Positions 32,972-36,727 of a stretch of 64,000 bases of DNA are shown here, piece after piece. The translations under genes and the position numbers were made by a program. Position 1 is the first letter of the stretch; each line of letters opens with the position of its first letter. The stretch covers positions 1,883 to 65,882 of the forward strand of contig CAYWGW010000002.1 in assembly GCA_964457385.1 (NCBI GenBank). The letters are read 5' to 3'. Source of the stretch: an uncultured Spirochaetaceae bacterium (lineage in GTDB: Bacteria > Myxococcota_A > UBA9160 > UBA4427). Under the pieces are notes generated by a model. That model saw only the letters and a list, made by a program, of their open reading frames with translations. It searched no databases and was not told the DNA's origin.

Positions 32972-33850
32972 ATGGCGATCCTCTGCGACAAAGAGACGAA
33001 GCTGATCGTGCAGGGCATGGGCCGGATGGGAACCTTTCACGCGGGGCTCTCGCGCGAGTACGGTACGCAGGTCGTCGGCGGCGTCCATCCCGGCAAGGGT
33101 GGGACCGAAATCGCGGGATTTCCCGTCTTCGATACGGTCCGGGAGGCGGTGGCTGCCACCGGCGCCAATGCGTCGGTGATCTTCGTCCCGCCGCCGGGGG
33201 CCGCGGATGCCATCCTGGAGGCGGCCGAGAACGAGCTGGGCCTCGCGGTCTGCATCACCGAAGGCATCCCGGTGATCGACATGGCGCGAGCCAAGGCGGC
33301 GTTGGCAGGCAGTCGCACGCGGCTGCTCGGCCCGAACTGCCCCGGCGTCGTGACGCCAGGACAATGCCGCATCGGGATCATGCCCGCGCAGATCACGCGT
33401 CCCGGTCCGGTCGGCGTGGTCTCCCGTTCGGGCACCCTCACCTACGAGGCCGTCGACCAGCTCTCGAGACTGGACATCGGCCAGTCGAGCTGTGTGGGCA
33501 TCGGGGGTGATCCCGTGATCGGGACGAGCTTCATCGACGCGCTGACGCTCTTCGAAGCGGACCCGGAAACGAAGGCCGTCGTGATGATCGGAGAGATCGG
33601 CGGATCCGCCGAGGAAGAGGCCGCCGAGTTCGTGCGGTCGAACATGACGAAGCCCGTGGCCGCTTTCATCGCGGGACAGAACGCTCCGGCTGGAAAGCGC
33701 ATGGGGCATGCGGGGGCCATCATCGCCGGCGGCAAGGGCAAGGCTTCCGACAAGATCGCGGCGTTGGAGGCGAACGGGGTCGCGGTTTCTCCTTCCCCGG
33801 CGGAGATCGGCGACACTTTGGCGAAGCACGCGCCGGGGCTGGCCGGCTGA
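32972..33850 (+). CDS. sucD: Succinate--CoA ligase subunit alpha
   Basis: [33 protein letters not shown] and the MGHAGAII phosphohistidine loop. Confidence 0.95.
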
Positions 33851-33877
33851 TCGGCGGAAGGGCGACGCGTCGCGCGT

Positions 33878-35197
33878 TCATCGCCGTACGGTGCGTGCGG
33901 CGCGGTTGGTCGGCATAGCCGAGAGTCCGTTGGCCCAGGCGGCGGCCTCGACCTCGCTGTGCTGGAGCTCGGCGGGCGTGAGCCCGAGTTCGTCGAGCAT
34001 CGCCGCGACGGCGTCGAGATCGTTTTCTTCAAGCCGTTCTCGAAGCGTGAGTAGCTTGCCGAGCGTCCCTTCTCGACGCATCAGGGCCGTCTCGATCGAG
34101 TAGTCGAGTGCCAGCTTCTGTGAGATCGCTTTCGGTGTCATCCCGAAGAGGGCCGGCGTCAGCGAGAGCATTCCGGTCAACGCGGCCCGGCTCGGCTCGA
34201 GTTCGTGGCTTCCGATCCGCTTTTCGAGCCGGATTCGGGCCAGGGACTCCATGGTCTTTCCGCGTACGGCCGCCATCCGGCAGAGGGGGTGCGCACAGCC
34301 CTGCTCGTCGTCGCTGGCGAGGAGCAGGAGGTGCAGCCAGCTCAGGAGCTGGCTGCGACCGACCATGACGAGGGCCTGCTCGAGCGAGTCGATCCGCTGG
34401 GCGGGCGTGCCGCGCATCAGGTTGGCCATGCTCAGGAGATTCACGATGAGATGGGGCACGGTGCGCAGGCGCTCGCCGACCTCGGAGACCGGCGTCTCTT
34501 CGTCGATCGCCGCGATCATGTCCAGCAGGGCCACGCTATGGGTGGATACGCGCTCGCGGGCGAGGGTTTCGGGGCGGGCGAAGTAGTAGCCCTGCACGAG
34601 ATCCCAGCCCTGACGCAGGACCAGACGATGTGTCTCGTACGTCTCGACGTGGACGGCGATCTTTCCGACGCTCTGCTCGTCGAGCTCTCGCGCGATTTTT
34701 CGAAGGGTGAGAGGACGATTCCGGCTCACATCCACTTTGGCGAAGCTGGCGTAGGGCAACAGTGCCCCGCGCGGATCGCGGTATCCGAAGTCGTCGAGGC
34801 AGATCCGGAATCCCTCACCCCGAAGTACCTCGATCCTTTCCACCAGCGCGTCGTCGACCGTGACGAGGGGAGGAATGTCGAATACGAGGAGGGATGCAGG
34901 CAGTGCATCCGTGTGGCGGGCGATGTCGAGCCGCGGGTCCGCATTCACGAAGCCCGGGAGGTTTCCCAGCAGCGTCTCCGCCCCGAAGCCGGCGAGGGCC
35001 GCGACGAGTACGCGGGCGGTCGCCCGGAACCCGTCGCTGAACTCGGCCCGTTCGGAATCGGGTGCATCCCGGAAGAGCAGGTCGTGCGCAACGATCCGCC
35101 CATCGGGGTCGAGGATCGGTTGGCGTCCGATGAAGAAGGTTCGCGTCGCGTCCGCAGAGGACGGGCGTTCGGCGGGCTCTTCGATCGGATGGCTCAT
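33878..35197 (-). CDS. EAL-like plus HDOD domain signalling protein (COG3434-type), with the EAL signature reading DLL
   Basis: FFIGRQPILDPDGRIVAHDLLFR, ICLDDFG, FAKVDVS and GYYFARPE motifs. The HDOD region has VPHLIVNLLSMANL...SLEQALVMVGRSQLLSWL. AAGGAG lies 4 nt upstream of the ATG. Confidence 0.85.
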   Translation of the reverse strand: MSHPIEEPAERPSSADATRTFFIGRQPILDPDGRIVAHDLLFRDAPDSERAEFSDGFRATARVLVAALAGFGAETLLGNLPGFVNADPRLDIARHTDALPASLLVFDIPPLVTVDDALVERIEVLRGEGFRICLDDFGYRDPRGALLPYASFAKVDVSRNRPLTLRKIARELDEQSVGKIAVHVETYETHRLVLRQGWDLVQGYYFARPETLARERVSTHSVALLDMIAAIDEETPVSEVGERLRTVPHLIVNLLSMANLMRGTPAQRIDSLEQALVMVGRSQLLSWLHLLLLASDDEQGCAHPLCRMAAVRGKTMESLARIRLEKRIGSHELEPSRAALTGMLSLTPALFGMTPKAISQKLALDYSIETALMRREGTLGKLLTLRERLEENDLDAVAAMLDELGLTPAELQHSEVEAAAWANGLSAMPTNRAARTVRR

Positions 35198-35200
35198 GGG

Positions 35201-35296
35201 GCTCCTTCGGTGGCCGTTCGACCCTTCCGCTCCTGCGACGGAGAGGGCACTGGCTTTGCGTCCCAGCGTTTCCGCAGGTTTGCCATTTCGGGGAGC
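35201..35296 (-). promoter_or_regulatory. c-di-GMP-I (GEMM-I) riboswitch candidate in the 5' leader of the EAL-HDOD gene
   Basis: The minus strand reads GCUCC CCGAAAU GGCAAACC UGCG GAAA CGCU GGGACGCAAAGCC AGUG CCCUCUCC GUCGCA GGAG CGGA AGGG UCGAAC GGC CACCGAA GGAGC CCC AUG. The GGCAAACC-4nt-GAAA-4nt-GGGACGCAAAGCC core has the same order and spacing as the V. cholerae Vc2 aptamer. Confidence 0.75.
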
Positions 35297-35431
35297 AGGC
35301 GAGCGAAGAGCCGGGATCGACCCGATCTTGCGACCGCGCGCGCTCGACTGGAATGATCGCGTGCTGCTGGAGCTGATCGTCTCCGGCGGTTGCGAACTTG
35401 AGTGGTCGTCCGTGGGGAGGATGGCCTTGCT

Positions 35432-36727
35432 TCAGTCGAGATCGCGCAGCCCGTCCAACCGCAGCCAGGCCCAGAACGCGTACGCGACGAGAAGGCTGCC
35501 GTAGAGGGCGACGACCGTCGGGAGCCCGGAGACCGCGCCGAGTAGACCGCCGAGCTGCGCGCCGATCGGCATCGAGACGATGATGCTCATCAGCTGGAGG
35601 GAGGTGACACGACCGCGGAAGACGGTGGGGACGTGGATCTGGATCGAGGTCGTGATCGATACGTTCACGAGGACGTGCGCCAATCCCGTGATCGCGAAGC
35701 CGACGACACCGAACCGGAAGTCGCTCGTCGACGCCACGACCCACAGGCCCGATCCGTACAGCACGAACCCCCATTGCACGAGAGCCGACCGACGGATCCG
35801 GTCACCGAGCCAGACAGTCAGAAGCGCCGTTGCGAAAGCGGCCACGCCGATCGACGAGACCAGGATGCCGAGCCCCTGCTCCCCCACGAGGAAGACGTCC
35901 TTCGCGAGCCCGGCGATCAGCGGCTGGATGCCCATGCCGAACATCGCCGTCACCGTTGAAGTCATCAGCGCGACACGGAGTCGTCGATCCCGCCAGACGA
36001 CCCGCGCGCCCGCGCGAAGATCCGAGAGCAGGCTCTCGGGGATCGCTCGATCCGAAGGGTGCGGTCGAAGGAACAGCAGCACGATCGCGAGGGGCAGATA
36101 GGCGACGGCGTTGACGAGAAAGGCCATCGTGGCGCCCCACTGAGCGAGGACGAATCCCGCGGCGGCCGGTCCGAGGGCTCTCGAGACGTTGAACTGGATC
36201 GCATTCAATCGATAGGCGGGGGCGATCTGGCCTCTCGGAACGATCTCGGCGACGAAAGACTGGTAGGCCGATAGATGCGTCGCCGACGCGAATCCCATGG
36301 TGGCGGCCAGGCCGAGCAGGGATGGCAACGCCAGGGCTCCAGCCCTGCTGGTCAGGAAGAGCGAGAGCGCGATGCCGACCTGGATGCCGAGCGAGCACAG
36401 CAGGACCATCCGCTTCGGGAAACGATCGGCCCATAGACCTCCCAGGGGCGAGGCGATGATCGCAGGACCCTGGGAGGCGAGTGCGGCGACTCCGAGCCAG
36501 GCGCTCGAGCCGGTCATCTCGTAGACCAGATAGGGGACGCTCAGCCCGAGCATCCAGTTCGCCGAGGCCGATAGCGCCCCTGCGAGCCAGCAGCTGACGA
36601 ATTGCGTCTCGCGCAGCGGGGCAAGGGGAGAGACAGGCTGGAGTGCAGTCTCCGCCGCCACTGCCGATCGTTTCGACTCCAAGCTCTCGAGTGCTCCCGA
36701 GCGCGCGGGCACTCGTTCCGGGTTCAT
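35432..36727 (-). CDS. MFS transporter
   Basis: 431 aa with about 12 predicted hydrophobic segments and a GGLWADRFPKR-type loop between TM2 and TM3. Confidence 0.85.
   Translation of the reverse strand: MNPERVPARSGALESLESKRSAVAAETALQPVSPLAPLRETQFVSCWLAGALSASANWMLGLSVPYLVYEMTGSSAWLGVAALASQGPAIIASPLGGLWADRFPKRMVLLCSLGIQVGIALSLFLTSRAGALALPSLLGLAATMGFASATHLSAYQSFVAEIVPRGQIAPAYRLNAIQFNVSRALGPAAAGFVLAQWGATMAFLVNAVAYLPLAIVLLFLRPHPSDRAIPESLLSDLRAGARVVWRDRRLRVALMTSTVTAMFGMGIQPLIAGLAKDVFLVGEQGLGILVSSIGVAAFATALLTVWLGDRIRRSALVQWGFVLYGSGLWVVASTSDFRFGVVGFAITGLAHVLVNVSITTSIQIHVPTVFRGRVTSLQLMSIIVSMPIGAQLGGLLGAVSGLPTVVALYGSLLVAYAFWAWLRLDGLRDLD

Follow-up and report, generated by a model that had tools for sequence, protein, structure and literature searches.

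A class-I cyclic-di-GMP (c-di-GMP) riboswitch of the ordinary kind occupies the intergenic spacer upstream of a gene encoding a degenerate EAL-HDOD protein; with it a well-known RNA family gains one more member, and the element is not of a new kind. Our main reading, to which we assign a probability of about 0.75, is that this leader holds a genuine class-I c-di-GMP riboswitch acting as a translational OFF switch, in which the basal helix of the aptamer (P1) takes up the ribosome-binding site. Coordinates refer throughout to the window, i.e., the whole 64-kb stretch of DNA that was analysed.

Identification of the aptamer in the intergenic spacer

An earlier note on this DNA had pointed to an apparently empty 234-nt gap, and its limits hold: the upstream MFS-transporter gene ends with a stop codon at 35434-35432, and the downstream gene begins with an ATG at 35197, the first possible start in its frame. 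The open reading frames running through the spacer in other frames are artefacts that result from the 66% G+C content, and the region is intergenic in the gene calls of the orthologous contigs. The gene that follows the spacer is:

33878..35197, minus strand: regulated gene, 439-aa degenerate EAL + HDOD protein, ATG at 35197-35195

At gathering thresholds, the whole window has two matches in Rfam 15. One of them falls inside the spacer, at 35206-35294 on the minus strand, and is RF01051 (c-di-GMP-I/GEMM-I), with an Rfam cmscan score of 55.2 bits (E = 4.6e-08) and an alignment that spans model positions 1-87 of 87. The note had named a cmsearch with RF01051 as one check on its proposal, and the score stands above the gathering threshold of 35. 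The element is delimited as follows:

35206..35294, minus strand: c-di-GMP-I (GEMM-I) aptamer as delimited by RF01051 (covariance-model score, uniqueness of the motif)

The core string from which the proposal had started, GGCAAACC-UGCG-GAAA-CGCU-GGGACGCAAAGCC, reads exactly so on the minus strand at 35284-35252. It has no second occurrence in the window, and none of 100 dinucleotide-preserving shuffles contains it, even when two mismatches are tolerated. The weak Actino-pnp match on the plus strand (13.5 bits, E = 3.3) was set aside as chance. The other Rfam match of the window is a tRNA gene (RF00005; 52768-52840, minus strand, 60.5 bits). The GEMM-I family has been known since 2007-2008. The genes downstream of many members serve c-di-GMP synthesis, degradation or signalling (PMC7266159).

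Upstream of the aptamer, a single stretch of the spacer is conserved among the closest orthologues:

35373..35402, minus strand: block CTCAAGTTCG-N-GACGATCAG, the sole conserved spacer block upstream of the aptamer in the seven closest orthologues

This CTCAAGTTCG...GACGATCAG block lies about 80-105 nt upstream of the aptamer and has no match to the sigma-70 consensus; it may serve the riboswitch transcript as a promoter or operator. Neither an intrinsic terminator nor a sigma-70-like promoter was detected in 33700-35700.

Conservation and covariation of orthologous leaders

The downstream protein has 47 homologues in a large protein collection. The orthologue set consists of 17 distinct loci whose proteins are 47-93% identical to that of the window, which together with the window gives 18 leaders. 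RF01051 is matched in 15 of the 15 orthologous loci scanned (51.6-67.5 bits), on the strand of the gene and ending 8-12 nt before its start codon; in the two last leaders, L174 and L175, the aptamer was found with a covariance model built from these leaders. The conservation check that the note had suggested on orthologous leaders thus returns the same aptamer directly 5' of the start codon in 18 of 18. Flanking genes vary among the more distant orthologues, and the aptamer therefore travels with the EAL-HDOD gene and not with the upstream MFS gene. With the leader-built covariance model, the aptamer is absent upstream of the gene in about 155 loci of homologues of 30-37% identity (Geobacter, Nitrosomonas, Thiobacillus and others).

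Three side observations belong to this survey. The sole match among the roughly 155 distant loci is a GEMM-I-like aptamer at L047:4725-4821 (minus strand, 44 bits with the leader model), with a U at the C92 position. In a Desulfuromonadales MAG, this aptamer follows a distant COG3434 homologue, on the strand opposite to it, and the gene that it controls is presumably a different one. The called start of one orthologue, P0021 (position 1501 of L174), is too far downstream; the aptamer and the Shine-Dalgarno sequence point to an ATG at 1375, and a start there gives P0021 back its conserved N-terminus (region L174:1375-1500). Finally, the contig L001 (CAYXLY010000270.1) is labelled "uncultured Spirochaetaceae" and carries a 75%-identity orthologue with a leader like those of contigs labelled Myxococcota or Deltaproteobacteria; its Spirochaetaceae label is probably a binning error.

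Covariation, the second check put forward for the two hairpins, is seen as compensatory changes in both P2 and P3. In a 16-sequence alignment, 89-90% of the cells form standard pairs, compared with 30-51% when the 3' partners are slid by 1-3 columns; changes on both sides occur in seven pairs, and the observed values are reached by 0 of 500 column shuffles. The distal part of P3 is misaligned for some sequences in the structural alignment made with the leader model, and this stem was therefore judged by single-sequence folding. With each P3 folded separately, the replacements in its distal stem compensate one another (CCGC/GCGG, CCGCC/GGCGG, CGGA/UCCG, GCAGAU/AUCUGC and others).

Architecture of the aptamer

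The aptamer is a canonical three-helix junction made of P1, a GAAA-capped P2 and P3. Positions are numbered through an alignment to the Rfam consensus anchored on the published contacts of the Vc2 aptamer (PMC6140456, PMC4744006, PMC5888326, bioRxiv 10.1101/617340). The equivalents of the ligand-contact and interhelical nucleotides are:

35284, minus strand: equivalent of Vc2 G20, G here (Rfam alignment); contacts G-alpha of the ligand (PMC6140456, PMC5888326)
35257, minus strand: equivalent of Vc2 A47, A here and in 18/18 leaders; first of three ligand-contact nucleotides (PMC4744006, PMC5888326)
35210, minus strand: equivalent of Vc2 C92, C here; Watson-Crick pair with G-beta of the ligand
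35260, minus strand: equivalent of Vc2 C44, interhelical Watson-Crick partner of G83; invariant in 18/18 leaders (role from PMC4744006)
35219, minus strand: equivalent of Vc2 G83, partner of C44; invariant alignment column 84 (role from PMC4744006, bioRxiv 10.1101/617340)

Both nucleotides of the C44-G83 pair are present and invariant in the 18 leaders; the tertiary pair itself is predicted. The two hairpins that the junction carries are:

35258..35283, minus strand: P2 hairpin, GC/GC base followed by CCUGCG-GAAA-CGCUGG (Rfam alignment, pair counts)
35212..35255, minus strand: P3 hairpin, its architecture kept in 16/16 aligned leaders

At the base of P2, the GC/GC pairs join 35283-35282 to 35259-35258, and the tetraloop lies at 35272-35269; it reads GAAA in 17 of the 18 leaders and GGAA in the remaining one. 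The inner helix of P2 shows changes on both sides in two of its six pairs, with 94.8% of cells paired. It contains a U.U mismatch at 35276/35265, which recurs in L161 and L164 and is a U-A pair in the other orthologues. P3 is laid out as an (A)GCC/GGC(C) base, a bulged A, GU/AC, GCCC/GGGU, a 3x2 internal loop (UCU/AA) and a distal stem CCGU/GCGG; its base starts with an A.C mismatch (35255/35212), at which place nine orthologues have A-U. A second hairpin had indeed been expected downstream of the first; its outer GCC/GGC and CCC/GGG pairings stand, and its inner CUCC/GGAG stem does not, being particular to the window. The three closest relatives (L161, L164, L162) have no GGAG at that place and keep CCGU/ACGG, so that the conserved distal stem of P3, in the window and these three relatives, is CCGU/(G/A)CGG.

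The internal loop of P3 (35245-35238/35230-35221) departs from the family. It reads UCU/AA where the Rfam consensus has CUAA/UAU (the canonical CCUAAG/UAUGG type), with low posterior probability in that part of the alignment, and the presumed tetraloop receptor is accordingly UCU/AA instead of the canonical 11-nt motif UAA/AU. CUAA is kept in this loop by L168, and the flanking CCC/GGG pairs are invariant; these conserved pairs could provide a minor-groove receptor for the P2 tetraloop. The U.U mismatch of P2, the A.C mismatch of P3 and the non-canonical receptor loop could mean that the affinity is tuned, possibly lowered.

The same three irregularities are what one would cite to hold that the aptamer is a decaying, non-functional relic. 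We regard such decay as scarcely credible: the U.U mismatch is common to two independent assemblies (L161 and L164), the contact nucleotides are all intact, and mean identity is 81% in the aptamer columns (with proteins 47-93% identical) against 56% in the spacer upstream, even among the seven closest relatives. The GEMM-I identity claimed at the outset has in its favour the RF01051 score, the presence of the aptamer in all 18 leaders, the covariation and the full set of contact nucleotides, and it is very highly probable that the c-di-GMP-I aptamer is functional.

P1 and the Shine-Dalgarno sequence

P1 is bipartite, with an inner CG/CG part of 2 bp, a small internal loop and an outer GCUCC/GGAGC part of 5 bp. 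Its strands are:

35292..35296, minus strand: outer P1 5' strand GCUCC, complementary to the Shine-Dalgarno sequence (variants GCUCC, GCUUC, GGUCC)
35289..35290, minus strand: inner P1 5' strand CG, pairing with CG at 35209-35208 (invariant alignment columns 13-14)
35201..35209, minus strand: P1 3' strand, made of CG (35209-35208), AA and GGAGC (35205-35201) with the Shine-Dalgarno GGAG (sequence, 18 leaders)

The details given in the earlier note for this helix are borne out. AAGGAG, said to lie 4 nt before the ATG, is found at 35207-35202, with CCCC between it and the AUG; GCUCC at 35296-35292 complements GGAGC at 35205-35201 as the claimed closing helix; and the Shine-Dalgarno sequence is part of this helix in all 18 orthologous leaders. 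GGAGC is invariant (18/18) and is spaced from the start codon by 3-6 nt, i.e., 4-7 nt after GGAG. The outer 5' strand reads GCUCC in five leaders, GCUUC in nine, L174 and L175 among them, where it forms a G.U pair, and GGUCC in four, where the helix is extended as UGG/CCA with a bulged G. Counted by hand over the 16 aligned leaders, 95% of the cells of outer P1 are paired, 12 leaders pairing fully and four in a bulged register. In inner P1, the C-G pair is invariant and the second pair is G-C in 15 of the 16 aligned leaders and G.U in L003. Changes in P1 are one-sided (C to U), without double compensations, since the Shine-Dalgarno sequence makes up the 3' strand; as that strand would be conserved anyway, only the 5' strand of P1 is informative.

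Proposed control mechanism

The ligand of GEMM-I aptamers binds at the junction atop P1, and here P1 contains the Shine-Dalgarno sequence; the simplest reading is for this reason a translational OFF switch without a separate expression platform. The 3' strand of P1 (GGAGC) would itself be the ribosome-binding site. When c-di-GMP is low, P1, being short (5 bp + 2 bp), would breathe and let the 30S subunit bind; when it is high, the ligand would stack on P1 at the junction and lock the helix, and the locked P1 would mask the Shine-Dalgarno sequence and repress translation. We consider this translational OFF mode through P1 and the Shine-Dalgarno sequence fairly likely, its polarity and its translational level both being read from sequence. 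Neither a second, platform-like helix nor, among the orthologous leaders, any conserved helix outside the aptamer is present, and a transcription-attenuation platform was rejected in view of the lack of a terminator in 33700-35700.

Nearest-neighbour folding leaves the direction of the switch aside. Over 118 nt, the native aptamer fold has -29.6 kcal/mol against -39.1 kcal/mol for the minimum free energy structure, which is non-native; the leader as a whole is no more stable than its shuffles (z-score +0.56), and in the alternative folds the Shine-Dalgarno sequence is partly paired, such that thermodynamic folding decides neither for ON nor for OFF. The same aptamer might work with another polarity or at another level, as an ON switch, by Rho-dependent termination or through mRNA stability, and we hold this to be unlikely. 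Stable predicted alternatives do pair part of P3 with the GGAGCC region; both polarities are known for GEMM-I riboswitches, Vc1 being ON and Vc2 OFF (PMC4744006, bioRxiv 10.1101/617340), and Vc2 controls RNA stability as well. Against this stand the location of the Shine-Dalgarno sequence within the ligand-stabilised helix in 18 of 18 leaders, the missing terminator and the upstream flanks, which are not conserved between clades and in which no conserved anti-P1 element was found upstream of the aptamer among the leaders.

A long-range pairing in the window would also bear on polarity. The leader stretch GGCUCUUCG (35312-35304) is perfectly complementary over 9 bp to CGAAGAGCC (35183-35175) in codons 5-8 of the gene, both on the minus strand, and could enclose the start region; the two belong to an interrupted duplex of 35304-35342 with 35142-35183 (-49 kcal/mol) that encloses the aptamer and the start codon. 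However, 3.3% of random genomic segments (60-mers) pair at least as well (empirical p about 0.03). The GGCUCUUCG/CGAAGAGCC pairing, which is kept in L161 through a G.U change, is lost in more distant relatives, and the duplex shows no conservation beyond the 93%-identity relative. The 5'-UTR/coding-region helix was accordingly rejected as a conserved element, and translational repression through P1 remains the preferred reading.

Ligand assignment

In all 18 leaders position 20 is G and position 47 is A, and position 92 is C in the window. Since the window copy is of the canonical G20/A47/C92 type, c-di-GMP would be expected as its ligand and is, going by these contact positions, the most likely one. 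Another dinucleotide, be it 3'3'-cGAMP, which GEMM-Ib senses, or whatever the GGC/UAU variant classes bind, is very improbable. The lineage of the window looks to us like Myxococcota, where hybrid GGDEF enzymes making cGAMP are known. Among the members of the Rfam clan, RF03167 (c-di-GMP-I-GGC) is the best match in E-value mode, the P1 geometry of its curated model is the same as that of the window, and leaders of a sister clade carry a U at the C92 position. However, at 49.9 bits RF03167 stays below its gathering threshold of 59, and the G at position 47 that defines this class is an A in the window, which removes the GGC assignment; position 92 is C in the window, and RF01051 is above its own threshold. 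The GEMM-Ib assignment falls on position 20, which is A in the cGAMP-sensing GEMM-Ib riboswitches (PMC6140456) and G in the window, as the note had aligned it, and in every other one of the 18 leaders.

U92 variants in a sister clade

The window and its eight closest relatives have C at position 92 (G20/A47/C92). In the other 9 of the 18 leaders (L002, L003, L082 and L170-L175; e.g. L172:2904-2990), this position is U: they read GUCGAA or AUCGAA instead of ACCGAA, with full posterior probability in Rfam's own alignment. U92 always occurs together with GCUUC, i.e., with a weaker, G.U-containing P1, and in seven of the nine leaders with G at position 43. To our knowledge, the G20/A47/U92 combination is not among the described variant classes (GGC, UAU).

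In Vc2, C92U weakens c-di-GMP binding (bioRxiv 10.1101/617340), and the engineered G20A/C92U double mutant recognises c-di-AMP by A-U pairing (PDB 3MUV, cited in PMC7288161). A natural G20/A47/U92 class might sense c-di-GMP with low affinity or else read an A-containing dinucleotide; because the engineered aptamer binds c-di-AMP via A-U pairing, a natural G20/U92 aptamer could read 3'3'-cGAMP. The bolder proposal, that the leader family forms a natural specificity series in which the G20/U92 aptamer either reads 3'3'-cGAMP in an orientation opposite to that of GEMM-Ib or is a low-affinity c-di-GMP sensor, is decidedly unlikely.

The regulated EAL-HDOD protein

The genes that follow the regulated gene (sucD, sucC and mdh) lie on the opposite strand, and as the next of them, sucD and sucC, are convergent, the regulated gene is monocistronic. 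Its product had been described as an EAL-HDOD signalling protein. The Pfam EAL model (PF00563) scores 37.9 bits against a cut-off of 31.3, with only positions 113-236 of 236 matched, and the HDOD model, applied to the window protein alone, stays just below its cut-off (18.7 against 22.9 bits). The family profile matches EAL structures together with the HDOD structures 3m1t (E = 9.7e-06) and MmoQ 3p3q/3ljx; PF08668 is precomputed in most homologues (all from P0007 down), the six closest relatives listing EAL only, and some sources name the homologues [quoted passage not shown]. By the family profile, the two-domain architecture is probable; the EAL domain is degenerate and lacks its catalytic base, and the protein is probably no phosphodiesterase.

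Three catalytic motifs are altered in the riboswitch-linked clade, at residues ~36-42, ~104-110 and ~180-185 of the window protein. The EAL motif has become DLL, with E kept in P0010 and P0021; E(x)xE has become FD(I)P (FDIPP of the window aligned to FEFTE); and A-E-G-V-E has become A-(V/T/C)-(H/R)-V-E, the window reading A-V-H-V-E in comparison with the EAL domains of the PDB, so that the catalytic-base Glu of EGVE is replaced by Val. In active EAL phosphodiesterases, the other two motifs, EAL and E(x)xE, each supply a metal-binding Glu. The more distant homologues, which have no riboswitch, mostly keep the canonical residues, including the EGVE glutamate in two of the three inspected. EAL domains without such catalytic residues are predicted to be inactive by the criterion of PMC12900916. 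Because the catalytic-base glutamate is absent, the regulated protein is probably a c-di-GMP receptor or adaptor rather than a phosphodiesterase. COG3434 or YuxH(PdeH)-type EAL + HDOD ("modified HD-GYP") proteins share the two-domain architecture predicted for the window protein; in contrast to them, the riboswitch-linked clade has DLL, FD(I)P and VHVE and misses the catalytic base.

Comparison with known riboswitches and significance

A Shine-Dalgarno sequence within the aptamer, with no separate platform and with ligand-stabilised pairing that occludes the ribosome site, as proposed for the window, is found in SAM-II, SAM-III/SMK box and preQ1-II riboswitches, whose folds and ligands are unrelated to those of the window aptamer. 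The fold of the window aptamer is that of Vc2 (Vibrio cholerae tfoY leader; PDB 3IRW/3MXH), with which it shares the three-helix junction, the GGCAAACC...GAAA...GGGACGCAAAGCC core, G20, A47, C92 and the nucleotides of the C44-G83 pair. J1/2 is one nucleotide shorter in the window, AAAU against CACAG in Vc2. The receptor loop differs likewise, UCU/AA in place of the CCUAAG/UAUGG type, and the window P2 has its U.U mismatch. An OFF switch acting on the ribosome-binding site, shown for Vc2 and predicted for the window, would be reached by different routes: Vc2 masks the site with an anti-RBS element that follows its aptamer (bioRxiv 10.1101/617340), whereas the site of the window would itself make up the 3' strand of P1. 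The GEMM-Ib riboswitches of Geobacter (e.g. Gs1761, PDB 4YAZ) have fold, Rfam family and clan in common with the window but carry A at the G20 position (A14 in Gs1761), where the window has G; for the most part they act through terminators, and the genes under their control are those of cytochromes and pili (PMC6456294).

As one more c-di-GMP-I riboswitch, in an uncultured and probably Myxococcota lineage, the element leaves knowledge of the family unchanged. It is a clean example of a minimal design, in which P1 of the aptamer would be the sequestor of the ribosome-binding site, and its linkage is exclusively to one EAL-HDOD clade without the catalytic base. This suggests that c-di-GMP represses the synthesis of a c-di-GMP receptor and may also bind that receptor. 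The sole lead of wider interest lies outside the window, in the natural U92 variant of the sister clade: if the specificity series were true, sister lineages would have one and the same degenerate EAL-HDOD receptor gene under different signals or signal thresholds.
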